Virus record (IMG/VR): IMGVR_UViG_2778261182_000003
Location: 1 to 6,111 of that record
Length of the DNA stretch: 6,111 nt
DNA from: a virus
Taxonomy: Duplodnaviria; Heunggongvirae; Uroviricota; Caudoviricetes
Strand: one strand, 5' to 3'
Position numbers and translations under genes: made by a program. The notes below the pieces were generated by a model. It worked only from the letters and a program-made list of their open reading frames with translations. It did not search any database and was not told the origin of the DNA. Position 1 is the stretch's first letter. Every line of letters starts with the position of its first letter. Shown piece by piece: positions 1-6,111 of the stretch.

Positions 1-81
1 TCACTTTAAAAAGGGCGGACATCAGCCAGCAATGAAAACTGATGCCGCCAAAGGTACAAATCAACATGGAGTGTTGTAGCG

Positions 82-118
82 GGGTTGTCACTTAAGCGTA
101 TGGTCAACCTGACAACCC
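82..118. repeat. Perfect 9-bp inverted repeat GGGTTGTCA / TGACAACCC separated by 19 nt
   Basis: Read directly: 82-90 GGGTTGTCA and 110-118 TGACAACCC are exact reverse complements. The following sequence GGCGCATTTTCT has only a short T-run set 6 nt from the stem, so it is a poor intrinsic terminator; a protein-binding site or RNA hairpin is equally possible. Confidence 0.4.
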
Positions 119-298
119 GGCGCATTTTCTGGAGCAATGGAGGAAACCCCAGCCATACTTACCGCCGCGCCATTTCGCGGATTGCCACAACCGGAAGCGC
201 ACGGTCGAATTAAATTTAACGACACTACGAACTTCGCCGTGCACTTTCGTGTTGTGTGCCTGCTTTTAACCACGTCAGGCGAGGTGGTTCCTGTCATT

Positions 299-346
299 CC
301 CCAACAACAAGAAATTTGTATAATCCGGATACCCCAACAACGAGAA
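299..346 (+). promoter_or_regulatory. Candidate promoter for the downstream + strand gene: TATAAT -10 (319-324) bracketed by two 15-bp direct repeats CCCCAACAAC[A/G]AGAA
   Basis: TATAAT at 319-324 with TG immediately 5' of it (317-318). Direct repeats at 299-313 (CCCCAACAACAAGAA) and 332-346 (CCCCAACAACGAGAA) match 14/15. No good TTGACA-like -35 was found at 16-18 bp spacing, so promoter strength and identity are uncertain. Confidence 0.3.
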
Positions 347-381
347 GAGTGCTCAACGTGATAGCAGAACTGTCAGCGGCT

Positions 382-870
382 ATGGCTGCGATAAAGGAGA
401 CAGCTGGCCTCGCAAAGGTTATTAATGACGCAAAAACGGATGCAGAAGTTAAAGCCGCAACTATTGAACTTCAGAACAAACTAATCACGCTTCAGGCGGA
501 GTGCTTCTCTCTTGGCGATGCGATCCGTCTTCGTAACGAAGAGATAATGCTTCTCAAAGCAAAAATTGCAGAATTCGAAAACTTTCAGATTCAGACTGAA
601 GGTTATGTTCTTAACCAACTCGAATCGGGTGCTTTTGTATACTCGAAGGAGGAAACGGTGAATGGAGGCACTGTTACTATGCATCTTTGTCCAAAATGTT
701 TTGGACAAAAGACAGTATCTATACTCCAGCCATTCCCGGTTAGCGAAGATGCGCCTTTTCATGAAAGTAAGTGTCTCCACTGTGAAAACAAGTTTCTGAT
801 GAACAAAAATCCGGATTACATACCGCTGTCTTTTGATGAGATAGCGAGAACACTGGGCAGTAATCCGTAG
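382..870 (+). CDS. Hypothetical protein, ~162 aa: N-terminal coiled-coil-like region and C-terminal CxxC-x24-CxxC zinc-ribbon; no transmembrane segment
   Basis: Long ORF in the six-frame track (256..870); first in-frame ATG is at 382 (MAAIKETAG...). Alternative starts are GTG 358 or GTG 256; no convincing Shine-Dalgarno precedes 382, so the start is uncertain. Cys pairs CPKC and CLHC are 24 residues apart. I recognise no family. Confidence 0.55.
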   Translation: MAAIKETAGLAKVINDAKTDAEVKAATIELQNKLITLQAECFSLGDAIRLRNEEIMLLKAKIAEFENFQIQTEGYVLNQLESGAFVYSKEETVNGGTVTMHLCPKCFGQKTVSILQPFPVSEDAPFHESKCLHCENKFLMNKNPDYIPLSFDEIARTLGSNP

Positions 871-996
871 GTTATTGCTGTTGTGGATATCCAGATTGTT
901 AAAGAACATGCCGGATTCTTATCCGTGTCCGGCGCACGACCAAACGCTGTCACGTGTGGTCTCCATTCTCAACCAGTAACCTCAATGGAGGATAAA

Positions 997-1206
997 ATGC
1001 CAAACAAGCCAATACATCCGCTTATTGAAAAACAGATTGAATGCCTAGTTAATCAACTCAGGCAATCAGGGTTATTAAAAACTCATTCAGAGCTAGGGCT
1101 CACAGAATCGGCATTCGACGATAAATTAAATAATGCGCTTTATAATGGCATCATTGATTACAATCGTGGCGCTGGTCGTCGTGGCCCTGCTGGTACAGCT
1201 TTGTAA
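997..1206 (+). CDS. Hypothetical small protein, 69 aa
   Basis: ATG at 997 preceded by GGAGG (987-991) with 5-nt spacing; in frame with track ORF 883..1206 (which begins at a GTG). Stop TAA at 1204-1206. Alternative start ATG 985 lacks an SD. I recognise no family. Confidence 0.5.
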   Translation: MPNKPIHPLIEKQIECLVNQLRQSGLLKTHSELGLTESAFDDKLNNALYNGIIDYNRGAGRRGPAGTAL

Positions 1207-1857
1207 TTACCAGTTAATCCATAGCGGATAGTGTTCAGCATAAATATAACTATACACATCCAGGTTGTATTTGCGGTCTGTCCTTAGCAGGTCGCAAATA
1301 CAGGCCGCAGCTTCCAGGGCAGCAGCTTTGTTGCTGAATAACCATGTAGCAACATTCCAGCGATTATCTGTATCCCACTCTTTTGCGAGAGTTGACACCA
1401 CGAAGGAGCCGTTGGTATTGCCATCAAATACTTCCGTTTCCAGATTTTTACGTAATGCCTGGTGAATTCTTGCCAGATATTCAGTCGGAATTTCGCCACG
1501 AATTCGGATAAGGTTGTCATAAACAAACATGTTCCCCGCATATGGCGATTTTTCTTTCCTGCATTTTAAGCCAGCATCACGGGTAAACTGGTCAATTTCT
1601 TCTTCGGTTTGTTTCGTATTGATGTTTTGCGTTATCGTTTCTGCAATGGGCTTTGCTTTATTTTCTACACAATGATTGTTTGTGAACGAATCTGAATACA
1701 GTCCGGTAAAAGAATTGCGGACATGATTTGATAAATTTCTGATGAACACCTTATCTACTAATATCATTGGGTTCCGCGCCAGTTGCGAGCGAATCACATC
1801 AGCGGCCATTTCCTGTATTGGTAGTGGTAAATCTTTAAATTCCATCGTCAGCCTCAT
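1207..1857 (-). CDS. Hypothetical protein, 216 aa, soluble, unknown function; second gene of the leftward early operon
   Basis: Uninterrupted 651-nt ORF on - strand. Start ATG (1857-1855) overlaps the TGA stop of the upstream small gene by 1 nt (TGATG), indicating translational coupling. Alternative start 4 codons downstream (ATG 1845-1843) has a GAGG SD. No Walker motif or hydrophobic segment; no family recognised. Confidence 0.7.
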   Translation of the reverse strand: MRLTMEFKDLPLPIQEMAADVIRSQLARNPMILVDKVFIRNLSNHVRNSFTGLYSDSFTNNHCVENKAKPIAETITQNINTKQTEEEIDQFTRDAGLKCRKEKSPYAGNMFVYDNLIRIRGEIPTEYLARIHQALRKNLETEVFDGNTNGSFVVSTLAKEWDTDNRWNVATWLFSNKAAALEAAACICDLLRTDRKYNLDVYSYIYAEHYPLWINW

Positions 1858-2009
1858 CAGTCAGTGTTTCTTGCTAACCAGCGACGTGCGCCAGATTCGG
1901 TTTTAAACGTTTTGCTTTTGGTATACGTCATCGCGGTGAACGTACCGTCCTGGTTGGGGAACACGCCGCACACCAGAGATTCACTGTTGCCAAGATCGAT
2001 AGTATCCAT
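1857..2009 (-). CDS. Hypothetical small protein, 50 aa (MDTIDLGNSE...ARRWLARNTD); first gene of the leftward operon
   Basis: In-frame ATG at 2009-2007 preceded by GAGG at 5-nt spacing and AAGGGG further upstream. The track ORF extends upstream to GTG 2063, which I consider less likely. Stop TGA (1859-1857) overlaps the next gene's ATG. Confidence 0.5.
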   Translation of the reverse strand: MDTIDLGNSESLVCGVFPNQDGTFTAMTYTKSKTFKTESGARRWLARNTD

Positions 2010-2085
2010 GTTGACCTCATTTCCCCTTAACGCTGGGGTAGCGGAACTGTTTGCTGAGAACACCGTGCGGTGTCTTGATGAGTAG

Positions 2086-2139
2086 AATTTAGAATAACCT
2101 AAGAATTGCGGTCAAGCTTTTTATGTAGAAAAACCTAAG
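2086..2139 (-). promoter_or_regulatory. OL/PL-like region: leftward promoter (-35 TTGACC at plus 2115-2110; -10 CTAAAT/TAAATT around 2092-2086) overlapped by two TTAG-N6-CTAA operator-like palindromes
   Basis: Palindrome TTTAG-aataac-CTAAG at 2088-2103; imperfect GTAG-aaaaac-CTAAG at 2124-2139. The same TTAG-N6-CTAA motif recurs in the repressor/Cro intergenic region. The promoter hexamers were read by eye and TSS is not determined. Confidence 0.4.
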
Positions 2140-2150
2140 TTTTTTGATGT

Positions 2151-2179
2151 AAAAAACACAAGTATTTGAAAGTTTGTGC
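2151..2179 (-). terminator. Weak terminator-like hairpin downstream of the repressor gene (- strand RNA: GCACAA-loop-UUGUGU followed by U6)
   Basis: On the - strand, plus 2174-2179 pairs with plus 2157-2162 (6 bp including one G-U, AU-rich), followed by a U6 run (plus 2151-2156 = AAAAAA). Low stem stability, so speculative. Confidence 0.25.
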
Positions 2180-2212
2180 TTTTTATTACAGGGAGTGGCG
2201 AAAAAAGGGGGG

Positions 2213-2620
2213 TTATTTATTTGCGCTTCTTTTGCGAGCTTTGAGTAGTTCTTCAAAAAGTTTGTTGAAATTCTCAACTCGAGCACGCATCTCTGACAAC
2301 AGAGCCTTTTGCTCTGACTCAGGCAGTGCGTCGAACAGTTGAAGCAACTCTTTTTGATCTTCTGTCAGATTGACTGGCTGATTATCTGGGATCGGTTCGC
2401 CTGGTTGCTTATCTTCATCTCCAAAAAGAAGCCAAGTCGGCGAGCACTGAAGCGCCTGGCTCAGTGCGAATAATCTCTTCCCCGCTGGCTGTGTTTCATC
2501 TCTTTCCCATTGAGAAATTGTTACGTGAGCCACTTTGACCAGCTTACCTAATGCGGCCTGAGACAGTTTTAATTTTTTACGCCTGTATAAGAGGCGAGCA
2601 CCGAAGGTTTCGTTTTTCAT
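2213..2620 (-). CDS. dicA: Prophage repressor, DicA family (XRE-type HTH), 135 aa
   Basis: 135-aa ORF whose N-terminal HTH (LSQAALGKLVKVAHVTISQWERDET) and C-terminal segments (LFALSQALQCSPTWLLFGDEDKQP; ALPESEQ...EMRARVENFNKLFEELLKARKR) closely match E. coli DicA as I recall it. Divergent arrangement with a Cro-like gene. The symbol denotes family resemblance, not proven orthology. Confidence 0.9.
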   Translation of the reverse strand: MKNETFGARLLYRRKKLKLSQAALGKLVKVAHVTISQWERDETQPAGKRLFALSQALQCSPTWLLFGDEDKQPGEPIPDNQPVNLTEDQKELLQLFDALPESEQKALLSEMRARVENFNKLFEELLKARKRSANK

Positions 2621-2690
2621 ATTAGGTAATTCTAATTTTTCTTGACTTAGGTTTCTCTACGATCTAGTTTCCTTAGGAAAATCTAAGGAG
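2621..2690. promoter_or_regulatory. OR-like divergent promoter/operator region with three TTAG-N6-CTAA sites; rightward promoter TTGACT(2642-2647)-N17-TAGTTT(2665-2670); leftward -10 TAGAAT (plus 2634-2629) ending 8 nt before the repressor ATG
   Basis: Sites: ATTAG-gtaatt-CTAAT 2621-2636 (perfect), TTAG-gtttct-CTAc 2647-2660 (imperfect), CTTAG-gaaaat-CTAAG 2672-2687 (perfect); centres about 25-26 bp apart. AAGGAG RBS at 2685-2690 lies 6 nt before ATG 2697. No SD precedes the repressor ATG. Confidence 0.5.
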
Positions 2691-2696
2691 TTCGAT

Positions 2697-2924
2697 ATGT
2701 TGAAAATTGATGCTATAGCGTTTTTTGGCAGCAAAACAAAGCTTGCCAATGCCGCAGGAGTTAGGCTGGCAAGCGTTGCTGCATGGGGGAAACTGGTTCC
2801 TGAAGGTCGCGCGATGCGCCTGCAAGAGGCATCCGGCGGGGAACTTCAGTACGACCCCAAAGTTTATGACGAATATCGTAAGGCAAAGCGGGCGGGGCGG
2901 TTGAACAATGAAAATCACCCCTGA
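2697..2924 (+). CDS. dicC: Cro-like small regulator of the DicC/YdaS family, 75 aa
   Basis: Divergent from the DicA-like repressor; AAGGAG RBS; sequence (GRAMRLQEASGGELQYDPKVYDEYRK) matches DicC/YdaS-type proteins as I recall them. The symbol denotes family resemblance. Confidence 0.8.
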   Translation: MLKIDAIAFFGSKTKLANAAGVRLASVAAWGKLVPEGRAMRLQEASGGELQYDPKVYDEYRKAKRAGRLNNENHP

Positions 2925-3459
2925 ACAGGTTTGTGAGGCTCTGGATGCCTGGGTATGCCGACCAGGAATGACACAGGAGCAGGCGACGATATTAATCACG
3001 GAAGCATTCTGGGCTCTGAAAGAACGCCCGAACATTGATGTTCAACGCGTCACGTTTGATGATGGCGCGGTTGATCAACGGGCACTGGGCGTTAACCGGG
3101 TGAAGATATTCGAACGCTGGAAAGCTATCGACACCAGGGATAAGCGTGAAAAATTCACGGCGCTGATTCCGGCAATTATGGAGGCTATCCGGATCAGTGA
3201 TTTCAGGTTGTATCGTGAAATTACTGACGGAAAAAGCATTACGTACATGATCGCCGGGTTAAACAAAGAATATGGCGATGTGGTGGAGTCCGGGCTGCTT
3301 TTTGCGGATCCAGCTGTTGTGGAACGTGAGACTGACGAGCTTATAGAAAAAGCTATTGCTTTCAAGCATGCGTATCGTCAGCAATACAAACATTACTTTG
3401 CAGATAAACAAATATCTGTCTGGGGTTCGTATGAGTATCGATGCACTACGATGGGCTAA
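2908..3459 (+). CDS. YdaT-family protein (CII-like regulator analogue of Rac-type prophages), 183 aa
   Basis: ATG 2908 overlaps the upstream gene by 17 nt. Segment IFERWKAIDTRDKREKFTALIPAIMEAI resembles the conserved core of Rac YdaT as recalled; position immediately after the Cro analogue fits. Confidence 0.7.
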   Translation: MKITPEQVCEALDAWVCRPGMTQEQATILITEAFWALKERPNIDVQRVTFDDGAVDQRALGVNRVKIFERWKAIDTRDKREKFTALIPAIMEAIRISDFRLYREITDGKSITYMIAGLNKEYGDVVESGLLFADPAVVERETDELIEKAIAFKHAYRQQYKHYFADKQISVWGSYEYRCTTMG

Positions 3460-4471
3460 AAAGGTGAAAACCGGCAGTTCATCCAGTAAGTCAGTATTGA
3501 CCTGGCTTGCTGATATGTGCGGTGCCGATTTGTGTGCATACCCGTCTGTATCTGCACTGGCAGAAGTAACGGAACTGAACAAAAAGACTGTGCAGGACAG
3601 CTTACGACACCTGATGGAGATTGGGTTAATTGTTGATACCGGTGAGAGAAAAGGCCGAACAAAGCAAATTGTGGTGTACCGACTTATCGGTGTAGAAGAA
3701 AGCGTTGCCGAGCCTGAATACACCCAAAAACGGGAGTCTTTAAAGGTGAGTAAAATTGGTGCTGTTAATAAAAACAGTACCGAAAATGGTTATGTTTCAG
3801 CACAAAACAGACCCAAAAACGAAACTCTTAGTTGCATGGAAAATAACCAAAGACACCCAAATTTTCCATCAAAGACACCCAAAAACGGATCACGGAACCC
3901 AAAGGAACCCAAAGATCTAAACCCCACACATAACGCACGCGAGAGTGCTCCGACCAGTGAGCAGGAAGTTTTGTCGTTACAGGCAGCACCCCCTGTATTC
4001 CTGGATGGCCTGAGCGAACCCATCGGAAAATTTCCGATGACCGATAGCTGGTATCCGTCACGGGATTTTCGACGACGTGCTGCGTTGTGGGGGATGGCTT
4101 TGCCGGAGACAGAATTCACACCTGCTGAACTTGCCGCCTTCCGGGACTACTGGGCAGCGGAGGGGAAAGTGTTTACGCAGATTCAGTGGGAGCAGAAATT
4201 CGCCCGTCACGTAAATCACGTCAGGGCGCAGGTTAAACCAGTCAGCAAGGGGGTAAACCATGCAGCAGCACCAGGTGACACCGCATCACGGGCAGTTCAG
4301 GAGATTCGGGCAGCACGTGAGCAGTGGGAACGTGAAAACGGATTTATCAGCGACGGAAACGGCCTGGAAGCTGTGGGAACTCATGGGGGAGGTTTATTCG
4401 AACCGCTGGATCCAGAAGAACGGGGCCGCACCTTCGAAGCTCTGGATTGCACAGATTGGTGCGATGACTGA
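3431..4471 (+). CDS. Replication initiation protein (lambda O analogue): N-terminal winged-helix replication-protein domain and DnaT-like C-terminal region; 346 aa as read
   Basis: Start ATG 3431 (MSIDALRWAKK...) gives the typical N-terminus of phage HTH replication proteins (...YPSVSALAEVTELNKKTVQDSLRHLMEIGLI...). C-terminal FPMTDSWYPSRDF...YWAAEG resembles DnaT-type domains. The track ORF begins at an upstream TTG (3356) inside the preceding gene. The last ~72 codons overlap the next gene in another frame (see findings). Confidence 0.75.
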   Translation: MSIDALRWAKKVKTGSSSSKSVLTWLADMCGADLCAYPSVSALAEVTELNKKTVQDSLRHLMEIGLIVDTGERKGRTKQIVVYRLIGVEESVAEPEYTQKRESLKVSKIGAVNKNSTENGYVSAQNRPKNETLSCMENNQRHPNFPSKTPKNGSRNPKEPKDLNPTHNARESAPTSEQEVLSLQAAPPVFLDGLSEPIGKFPMTDSWYPSRDFRRRAALWGMALPETEFTPAELAAFRDYWAAEGKVFTQIQWEQKFARHVNHVRAQVKPVSKGVNHAAAPGDTASRAVQEIRAAREQWERENGFISDGNGLEAVGTHGGGLFEPLDPEERGRTFEALDCTDWCDD

Positions 4472-4925
4472 GCAGCAAATCCGACAGGTCTGCCGCCAGT
4501 GCATGGACCGCTGCCGGGCGGGTGAAACATGGCCTCCGGACCTGGCTGAGTTTGTGGCGCTGATTTCTGAAAGCGGAGCCAATCCATTCGGTCTGACGGT
4601 GAATGCCGTGATGGAGGAGTACCGCCGCTGGCGCAACGAGTCCTGGCGATACGACGGGAGCGATAAATACCCGTGGTCTCAGCCTGTGCTGTATCACATT
4701 TGCCTCGAGATGCGTTCAAAGGGGATTGAGCGGCAGATGACCGAAGGGGAGTTAAAACGGCTTGCAGAACGGCAGCTGACGAAATGGGCAAAGCATGTTG
4801 GTGACGGCTTCAGCGTTCCGCCCGTACGGCGGCAACTGGCAGCACCAAAACGCCCGTCGGGGCCAACACCAATTGAGTTGCTGAAACAGGAATATGAACG
4901 CCGGAAAGCGGCTGGTTTTGTTTGA
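4260..4925 (+). CDS. Replication protein P-like (putative DnaB helicase loader), 221 aa
   Basis: ATG 4260 preceded by AAGGGGG (4247-4253) at 6-nt spacing. Protein aligns by eye with lambda P as recalled (SNRW...LWIAQIGAMTEQQ vs ...RRQWVLAFRENGITTMEQV; YPWSQPVLY vs YPWKSNAHYW; similar overall length). In-frame alternative starts at 4383 and 4464 would truncate the conserved N-terminal region. Confidence 0.65.
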   Translation: MQQHQVTPHHGQFRRFGQHVSSGNVKTDLSATETAWKLWELMGEVYSNRWIQKNGAAPSKLWIAQIGAMTEQQIRQVCRQCMDRCRAGETWPPDLAEFVALISESGANPFGLTVNAVMEEYRRWRNESWRYDGSDKYPWSQPVLYHICLEMRSKGIERQMTEGELKRLAERQLTKWAKHVGDGFSVPPVRRQLAAPKRPSGPTPIELLKQEYERRKAAGFV

Positions 4926-4958
4926 GTTGATAAGTAATTTTACCGGGAGGAAATTTTA

Positions 4959-5720
4959 ATGGAGACTGTTTTTGACGCACTGAAAGCAATGGGAAAAGCC
5001 ACGTCGGTAGAACTCGCTGCGCGACTTGATATCAGTCGTGAAGAAGTGCTGAACGAGCTGTGGGAACTGAAAAAGGCTGGCTTCGTTGATAAAAGCGTAT
5101 ACACCTGGCGTGTGGCTGATAACAACGTTCAGCAGGAACAGCCAGCGCTGGCAGAACTGCCGGAAGAAACTACCACGGCAACAGTCGCTAAAATTTCGGA
5201 GAGCGATTTAACTGCGACGATTGAACAACGTGGACCACAAACGGCGGATGAACTGGCTACGCTGTTCGGTACCACATCCCGCAAAGTGGCTTCAACGCTG
5301 GCAATGGCAATCAGCAAAGGTCGTCTGATTCGTGTAAACCAGAACGGTAAATTTCGTTACTGCATACCGGGTGATAATTTACCAGCAGAGCCGAAAGTTG
5401 AATCGGTAGCGGAAACCGATGGTAAAGCCTTTCCTCAGCCAGCAGGTGTTGCGTTACCAGTACAGGAAGCTGCAACACAGGAAGATATTAAAACAGAAAC
5501 TGTGGCTGATATTGTGCAATCGTTGCCATCGTTTACTGAAACGCGAGCGGATGACCTGGTTTTACCATCGCTGCATATGGCAAACCGCGAATTGCGTCGG
5601 GCGAAAAGTCATGTCCAGAAGTGGGAGCGAGTCTGCGCCGCGCTGCGGGAGCTGAACAAGCACCGGGATATTGTTCGACAGATTACTGATTTTTCCCGCC
5701 GTGTTGCATCGGAAAAGTGA
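4959..5720 (+). CDS. Conserved hypothetical prophage protein, 253 aa, with two winged-helix-like segments and an acidic linker
   Basis: ATG 4959 with GGGAGG (4945-4950) upstream. HTH-like segments at the N-terminus ([30 protein letters not shown]) and mid-protein ([30 protein letters not shown]). Family assignment not verified. Confidence 0.7.
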
Positions 5721-5735
5721 TTGCCGGAGGCGCTT

Positions 5736-6111
5736 ATGGCAAAAGTATTTACACAAGAAGAGCGGGAAAAAATTAAGGGGCAGATTGTTGAACTTGTACG
5801 TCTGAGCGGTCGCGAGACGTTACGGCAACTGGAAGCGAAAACAGGTGCGACAAGATATCTGATGAGTGTTCTCGCCAGAGAGCTGGTTGCCAGTGGCGAT
5901 GTATACAATTCTGGCTACGGGTTATTTCCGTCTGAACAGGCTCGTAAGGACTGGCAAAACGCCCGCATAAAACTATCGAGGGCAAAGGCGAAGAAACCGG
6001 TTATGGTTGATCCGGACCTTATCTGGTCATTACCAGACGGAGAAATACGCCGCTACGACAGGCGTCAGAACATGATTTGCCGTGAGTGCCGGGAAAGCGA
6101 AGTTATGCAGC
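5736..6111 (+). CDS. Hypothetical protein, 5' portion only (at least 125 aa, continues beyond the window); N-terminal winged-helix-like segment
   Basis: ATG 5736 preceded by GGAGG (5726-5730) at 5-nt spacing; frame open to the window end (not in the ORF track because no stop is reached). Begins MAKVFTQEEREKIKGQIVELVRLSGRETLRQLEAKTGATRYLMSVLARELVASG. Confidence 0.6.
   Translation, partial: MAKVFTQEEREKIKGQIVELVRLSGRETLRQLEAKTGATRYLMSVLARELVASGDVYNSGYGLFPSEQARKDWQNARIKLSRAKAKKPVMVDPDLIWSLPDGEIRRYDRRQNMICRECRESEVMQ

Follow-up and report, generated by a model that had tools for sequence, protein, structure and literature searches.

Genes at the locus

The window analysed here, 6,111 nucleotides (nt) comprising positions 1 to 6,111 of IMG/VR virus record IMGVR_UViG_2778261182_000003, covers the immunity and early genes of an Escherichia coli prophage of the Qin-like lambdoid type; within it, a leftward early gene meets a small gene of the opposite strand end to end. 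The leftward gene, termed X212 (1207..1845, minus strand; phrog_2151), encodes a protein of 212 amino acids (aa) with an N-terminal helical domain, a polar linker and a C-terminal alpha/beta domain. The small convergent gene (985..1206, plus strand; phrog_4274) encodes 73 aa from a MEDK start at 985 or 69 aa from an ATG at 997, and its stop codon abuts that of the 212-aa gene. An initial annotation had instead paired the large gene with the 50-aa gene upstream of it as a translationally coupled, uncharacterised unit. The proposal developed below, put forward tentatively, is that the two convergent genes are cognate partners and represent one version of an interchangeable prophage cassette.

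The flagged region is the start of the already described dicBF-type early-left operon in a Qin-like prophage, an assignment that follows from the DicA match of the repressor, the promoter and its operators, a leader and -35 hexamer like those of K-12, a DicF match just below the Rfam gathering score, and the repression of dicBp by DicA in K-12. The reference layout is that of K-12 Qin (dicA - dicBp - ydfA ydfB ydfC - dicF - dicB - ydfD). The placement of the flagged genes as first cistrons of a repressor-controlled leftward operon, below an operator-covered promoter, was thus borne out, as a DicA-family repressor, a dicBp-like promoter and operators were all found.

The first cistron is ydfA (1857..2009, minus strand), and its 50-aa product is a catalogued member of the YdfA family, matching Pfam PF07151 (DUF1391) at 98.2 bits against a cutoff of 27.3 over 47 of 48 profile positions, with few positions differing from K-12 YdfA. 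The earlier statement that neither protein falls in a recognised family therefore fails for the small protein (Pfam DUF1391/YdfA, 98 bits); the large one belongs to phrog_2151, a family with no function assigned. The order dicA then ydfA is the same as in K-12, and ydfA is the first gene after the homologous promoter and leader. The genes ydfA, ydfB and ydfC are the promoter-proximal genes of the dicBF operon that have no assigned function (PMC5069750); literature searches found no functional study of DUF1391, Ybl81 or ydfABC, and a PDB sequence search with YdfA returned nothing meaningful. Among 5426 complete E. coli genomes, 4037 carry the segment made up of ydfA and its leader, at 7418 places in all, and approximately 90% of ydfA copies do not have the 212-aa gene as a neighbour. 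YdfA may merely be the conserved leader gene of the operon.

Both ORFs (open reading frames) of the flagged pair are present where the initial annotation placed them, at 1207-1857 (-) and 1857-2009 (-), with base 1857 common to the two within a TGATG overlap. The large gene is nevertheless most likely 212 rather than 216 aa in length, beginning at the ATG at 1845, 11 nt after the ydfA stop codon and 12 nt downstream of the overlap ATG. This revised model is based on the phrog_2151 alignment (6.9e-96, profile positions 1-212 of 212), which begins at residue 5 of the 216-aa ORF, on the length of homologues (mostly 212 aa, range approximately 200-221), on the 212-aa call of the Prokaryotic Genome Annotation Pipeline (PGAP) in O157:H7 EC4115, and on start codon conservation. 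A GAGG/GGGG Shine-Dalgarno sequence and the MEFKDL ATG (1845) are kept in all 79 related loci; the upstream ATG (1857) has become ACG in some of these, and in others an in-frame TAG lies before the MEFKDL ATG. The Shine-Dalgarno sequence overlaps the ydfA stop codon, and in other loci and prophages the identical ribosome-binding site and ATG come after ydfB or ydfC. As the overlap start is unconserved and the true start likely lies at 1845, the TGATG overlap is no proof of coupling. The AT-richness of the gene and its modest contrast with the rest of the region were confirmed (GC approximately 0.39 at 1531-1800 versus 0.55-0.61 in the replication genes).

In ETEC1738 and STEC308 (L001 9108-9623 and L002 6108-6623 among the related loci), PGAP treats the homologue as a pseudogene, "missing N-terminus". 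The ORFs in both genomes are intact and of full length, and the mosaic N-terminus seems to have produced an artefact of annotation.

Conservation of the convergent pair

Both ydfA and the large gene are real genes under purifying selection, beyond chance ORFs, with ratios of nonsynonymous to synonymous substitution (dN/dS) of 0.13 for ydfA and 0.17 for the C-terminal domain of the 212-aa protein (23 distinct sequences); the polar linker is the least constrained part of that protein (dN/dS 0.55). The small convergent gene has a dN/dS of 0.20. It lies beside the 212-aa gene in approximately 74 of the 79 IMG/VR loci, and ydfA adjoins the large gene in approximately 70. In complete E. coli genomes, the large gene occupies 751 places in 600 genomes, and the C-terminal domain and the small gene occur together in 594 of these 600.

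The same pairing is seen in Salmonella, where the C-terminal domain of protein P0150 is 30-34% identical to that of the window and is joined to another N-terminal domain; the P0150 gene follows a Cox gene, is without ydfA, and lies in a locus adjoining integrase and repressor genes. All seven Salmonella places examined carry a convergent gene of 64-69 aa that is 49-58% identical to the small ORF of the window (52% identity, E 1e-24, for the pair compared), the neighbour protein having been identified in one of the seven (P0150). The Salmonella small gene overlaps the 3' end of its 217-220-aa neighbour by 53 nt. Because the pairing is kept in Salmonella without ydfA and with a different N-terminus, the conserved unit is most likely, judging from these sequence comparisons, the C-terminal domain together with the convergent small gene, not ydfA together with the large gene.

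Versions of the cassette

The slot between ydfA (or ydfB or ydfC) and dicF holds at least five versions of a convergent two-gene cassette, those other than the version in the window having been read from loci that were located by way of a different protein with this N-terminal domain in common. In version A, that of this window, gene 1 encodes 212 aa and gene 2 encodes 73 aa; the corresponding lengths are 186 aa and 84 aa (the latter zinc-ribbon-like) in version B, 112-119 aa and 68 aa in version C, 135 aa and 77 aa in version D, which is found in the PPompW phages, and 129 aa and 105 aa in version E, with gene 2 convergent throughout. In all five, the gene 1 product begins with the MEFKDLP... 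N-terminal domain of approximately 55 aa and continues into an unrelated C-terminus. Gene 2 of versions A, B, C and E has a common leader hairpin and MEDK start followed by an unrelated body, whereas in version D the hairpin is a variant and the start differs; only the first 8 residues are common to the gene 2 versions. The gene 1 products (112-212 aa) are hydrophilic and are not membrane proteins.

At the DNA level, the left flank (2047-1802) and right flank (1002-909) are 86-98% identical among versions A, B, C and E, and the interior between them cannot be aligned. The right flank (909..1002, plus strand) is thus conserved across unrelated cassette versions and comprises the small-gene leader, a hairpin at 910-933 and the first codons (MEDK). 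This hairpin is a palindrome, GCCGGA-N12-TCCGGC, situated approximately 50-75 nt upstream of the small convergent gene, and it is kept between E. coli and Salmonella in surroundings that are not conserved. Possible roles are those of an RNA element in the small-gene leader, of a site bound by a protein, or of a signal for processing of the leftward transcript bound for dicF.

Of the complete E. coli genomes, 876 (approximately 16%) have the right flank and approximately 11% have version A, so that version A accounts for about two-thirds of E. coli cassettes. The two-gene segment of version A is present in 600 of the 5426 complete genomes, many of them from Shiga-toxin-producing strains, and its hosts include strains of O157:H7, O26, O111, O121 and O145. 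K-12 Qin is without the cassette, and comparison of the gene 2 versions and the 212-aa protein with ten K-12 Qin proteins (Rem, YdfV, FlxA, YdfW, YdfX, YdfA, YdfB, YdfC, DicB and YdfD) revealed no similarity. Deposited phage genomes gave no match to the complete 212-aa gene or to its small partner; the N-terminal domain alone is present, in the PPompW phages. As far as the searches reached, a swappable convergent two-gene cassette of this kind has not been described previously.

Domains and predicted fold of the 212-aa protein

The 212-aa protein is an uncharacterised, narrowly distributed prophage protein of Escherichia and Salmonella. Its N-terminal helical domain, a hairpin of approximately 55 aa, is encoded at 1681-1845 on the minus strand, followed by the polar linker (1558-1680), the C-terminal alpha/beta domain (residues ~97-212; 1210-1557) and the stop codon (1207-1209). 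A profile search of 1.84 billion representative proteins returned a single full-length cluster, approximately 35 clusters of small proteins that have only the N-terminal domain in common with it, and, for the C-terminal domain, no more than two distant relatives, both from Salmonella and both with a different N-terminus. Scans of the protein against Pfam, NCBIfam and PADLOC gave no family match, and PDB sequence searches with either the C-terminal or the N-terminal domain yielded nothing meaningful. In the Salmonella protein P0137 (286 aa), an HTH_3 DNA-binding domain is inserted between the N-terminal and C-terminal domains, which hints that the C-terminal domain may be able to serve as a regulatory or oligomerisation module.

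Structure prediction followed by Foldseek, which had been suggested as a check of both proteins, gave a usable model of the C-terminal domain, yet neither a significant fold match nor a function. The full-length AlphaFold2 (AF2) model was poor (predicted local distance difference test, pLDDT, 56) and was set aside, while that of the C-terminal domain became acceptable after the Salmonella sequences were added (pLDDT 78, predicted template modelling score, pTM, 0.73), with secondary structure in the order beta-beta-alpha-beta-beta-alpha-beta. Foldseek searches with this model gave no match at E <= 0.001 in the PDB or in the viral library BFVD, and the best structural matches are generic two-layer sandwiches, none of them significant. 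ACT/ferredoxin-like two-layer alpha/beta sandwiches resemble the domain only generically in fold, with 7-12% sequence identity and no Pfam ACT hit, and this resemblance places it in no family. A weak resemblance to the Prp/YsxB cysteine proteases (TM 0.36-0.46) was considered and rejected, as the family has no Cys or His that all its members keep.

The invariant residues of the C-terminal domain are mostly hydrophobic or structural, with no conserved Cys or His and no acidic cluster. As there are no conserved catalytic residues and no match by homology or fold, a non-enzymatic binding role is the most economical; the domain, modelled as a small two-layer alpha/beta sandwich, probably acts by binding and not by catalysis.

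Promoter, operators and leader of the operon

The promoter upstream of ydfA was recovered by promoter scan as a sigma-70-like promoter on the minus strand, and together with two operators it occupies 2086..2139, the -35 hexamer being TTGACC (2115-2110) and the -10 hexamer TAAATT (2091-2086). The operators are of the TTAG-N6-CTAA type and lie at 2089-2103 and 2125-2139, flanking and overlapping the promoter; in inverted orientation, they repeat three sites that lie between the repressor and cro genes (2622-2687). Alignment with K-12 dicBp shows an identical -35 hexamer, the same operator-promoter-operator layout and a promoter match that is almost base for base. Only the inner operator bases differ from K-12, and the immunity specificity is therefore expected to differ. 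In K-12, DicA represses dicBp 22-fold, and derepression by the antirepressor Rem amounts to 165-fold (bioRxiv 10.1101/2023.04.14.536235). Repressor control of the leftward operon in the window is well supported by this homology, with repression itself being predicted.

The 5' leader of the operon (2010..2079, minus strand; approximately 70 nt) is conserved and contains a hairpin at 2050-2063 (ACACCG-TG-CGGTGT). It is near-identical to the ydfA leader of K-12 and to that of prophages of other immunity types, despite differing adjacent operators. An antitermination RNA of the N-type or put-type in this leader was considered and rejected, Rfam having given no match. An AT-rich hairpin followed by a T-run lies at 2150-2185 on the minus strand, just past the repressor stop codon and ahead of the leftward promoter; it may end repressor transcripts and so keep read-through from the maintenance promoter out of ydfA.

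The window therefore resembles the K-12 dicBF operon in the orientation of its DicA-family repressor, its -35 hexamer, operator layout and leader, and in having ydfA first and a probable DicF downstream. It differs in lacking ydfB and ydfC, in its operators and immunity specificity, and in carrying the convergent cassette and a further plus-strand gene at 358-870. In O157:H7 EC4115 (L091 6306-6644), the order ydfA-cassette-dicF-dicB stands under a LexA-family (S24-type) repressor rather than a DicA-type repressor, an arrangement which indicates that the cassette and leader move between immunity types.

Interpretation of the cassette

The flagged pair itself is ordinary, as ydfA was already known and the dicBF operon is well studied; the interest of the region lies in the cassette, whose shared N-terminal domain, leader and co-varying interiors form a layout typical of conflict loci, whether toxin/antidote or defence/counter-defence. 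The explanation tentatively preferred here is that the 212-aa gene and the convergent small gene are a cognate effector/partner pair and one version of an interchangeable prophage cassette. On derepression, the leftward transcript would give YdfA and the gene 1 product and would then run antisense through gene 2 towards dicF and dicB, whereas gene 2 would be made from the opposite strand; such convergent transcription would render the expression of the two genes mutually antagonistic. The C-terminal domain of the gene 1 product and the gene 2 product would be cognate, physically interacting and version-specific partners, one product being an effector made upon lifting of repression and the other a version-specific antidote or regulator, while the shared N-terminal domain would serve in all versions for docking to a common partner. 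A broader form of the proposal, that the slot houses a family of effector/partner cassettes with a docking domain, a C-terminal effector made on derepression and an opposite-strand small protein acting as antidote or lysogen exclusion factor, is conceivable but doubtful. In the exclusion-factor form, the early protein would prevent self-targeting by the small protein expressed in the lysogen. Such a slot family, if true, would be an undescribed polymorphic conflict locus.

Several points weigh against the preferred explanation. The coding regions of the C-terminal domain and of gene 2 are contiguous and have a conserved crossover site as their boundary, so co-inheritance could be explained by linkage alone. 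A scan for a promoter of the small gene, in the conserved flank or upstream of it, gave candidates at background level only, and as no convincing promoter was found the expression of the small gene in lysogens is an assumption. In all five versions there was no Pfam match above the curated cutoff and no significant PADLOC hit, for which reason effector and antidote roles cannot be assigned; the search of PADLOC-DB v2 with gene 1 and gene 2 of the five versions and with the Salmonella homologue produced non-significant matches only (E 0.0075 and 0.013). The AF2 model of the C-terminal domain was built on a shallow alignment of 24 sequences, and its interaction with the gene 2 product is one that we infer from sequence comparison.

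The first of these points is also the core of the most serious alternative, which we regard as unlikely: that two independent accessory genes travel together, the one an early-left protein of 212 aa and the other an unrelated small "moron" ORF, co-inherited through recombination in the flanks. Lambdoid mosaicism typically leaves conserved flanks around an unrelated interior, and the slot evidently accepts cargo, as the extra unrelated gene at 358-870 is inserted beside the cassette. Against this, the pair is kept under purifying selection with the C-terminal domain diverged to approximately 32% identity and gene 2 to approximately 52%, the pairing survives where the N-terminal domain, the upstream gene and the host genus are all different, and a convergent gene 2 is present in five of five cassette versions. 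The Salmonella relative P0137, with its HTH_3 domain ahead of a homologous C-terminal domain, brings to mind a different role, in which the 212-aa protein would regulate the lysis-lysogeny switch, for example as antirepressor or ligand-sensing factor, and have an ACT-like C-terminal module for sensing or oligomerisation, and the constant position of the 212-aa gene next to the immunity region would suit this. We consider it improbable, since the protein has no match to Pfam ACT, that of the window has no DNA-binding domain, and most Qin-like prophages, K-12 included, are without the gene, which is thus not a core component of the switch.

The coupling originally proposed, in which ydfA and the large gene form a translationally coupled, fixed-ratio pair such as a toxin-antitoxin or two-part effector, is largely refuted and is given very little probability. 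It can draw on the adjacency of ydfA in approximately 70 of the 79 loci that carry the large gene, and on the overlap of the Shine-Dalgarno sequence with the ydfA stop codon, by which some coupling through re-initiation would be possible. The overlapping ATG is not conserved, however, and in some loci ydfB or ydfC intervenes ahead of the same ribosome-binding site; the two genes also differ greatly in distribution (ydfA in 4037 genomes versus 600 for the large gene), so that most ydfA copies stand without it, the Salmonella homologues are without ydfA, and ydfA is missing from the PPompW phages, one of whose proteins has the shared N-terminal domain. In Pfam and NCBIfam, neither YdfA nor the 212-aa protein matched any family of toxins or antitoxins, and PADLOC gave no significant hit for either. 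That the large ORF is a decaying pseudogene, for which only the PGAP flag "incomplete; missing N-terminus" in ETEC1738 and STEC308 speaks, is refuted, as the ORFs of both genomes are intact, EC4115 has an intact 212-aa call and the dN/dS of the C-terminal domain is low.

For the cognate-partner explanation, two kinds of known system are instructive. Polymorphic toxin-immunity cassettes of the CdiA-CT/CdiI and Rhs-CT/RhsI type have a conserved N-terminal part, unrelated C-terminal domains and, for each, its own small neighbour gene. The cassette of the window is alike in its conserved N-terminus, variable C-terminus, co-varying small gene and flanks that would permit swapping; it is unlike them in that no version has a domain for secretion or delivery or a recognised toxin domain, in its convergent rather than co-directional partner gene, and in that its proteins are small, cytoplasmic and made early by the phage. 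The second kind comprises prophage defence genes with cognate self-immunity, namely BstA/aba (PMC8585504) and the Tha system (PMC11087260), where a function made in the lysogen is matched by one of the prophage's own lytic programme, as would fit the opposite orientations of the two cassette genes. To these systems the cassette has no sequence or fold relationship, and no version of it has a significant PADLOC hit. If the two genes are cognate partners, they would represent a new compact class of prophage conflict module and would offer, apart from DicF and DicB, the first functional handle on a portion of the dicBF operon.

Neighbouring features

The repressor gene (2213..2620, minus strand) encodes a DicA-type prophage repressor of 135 aa that consists of a helix-turn-helix (HTH) domain only, without an S24 peptidase domain (NCBIfam NF007257 DicA, 1.6e-72, full length; Pfam HTH_3). 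A P22-Cro/DicC-like gene, recognised by library matches, follows at 2697-2924 on the plus strand, and the right part of the window contains a YdaT/CII-like gene and DnaT-like and P-like replication genes. In one related prophage (L007 2505-3169, minus strand), ORFs of 100 aa and 119 aa are inserted between the repressor gene and ydfA, so that the repressor-ydfA intergenic region is another cargo site; by eye, this two-gene insert looks like a putative HigB/HigA pair.

At the left end of the window, a probable gene for the DicF small RNA (13..62, minus strand; Rfam RF00039) is the downstream member of the leftward operon. It matches the full model length at 44 bits (E 2.5e-7) against a gathering score of 48, and the region aligns to K-12 dicF; the copy of O157:H7 EC4115 scores 75 bits, that of the window being a diverged variant. 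In related E. coli prophages, the common gene order continues leftward with dicB, ydfD (DUF1482), recE, xis and int; the position of dicB would be beyond the left end of the window, and dicB is found in the related loci.

Between the right flank of the cassette and dicF, the insertion at 358-870 on the plus strand carries a 170-aa ORF (phrog_1244) with a predicted coiled coil and a CxxC...CxxC zinc-ribbon-like motif, which is present in only 2 of the 79 related loci. A perfect TATAAT stands upstream of it at 319-324, flanked by direct repeats of CCCCAACAAC(A/G)AGAA at 299-313 and 332-346, which may be candidate binding sites for a regulator.

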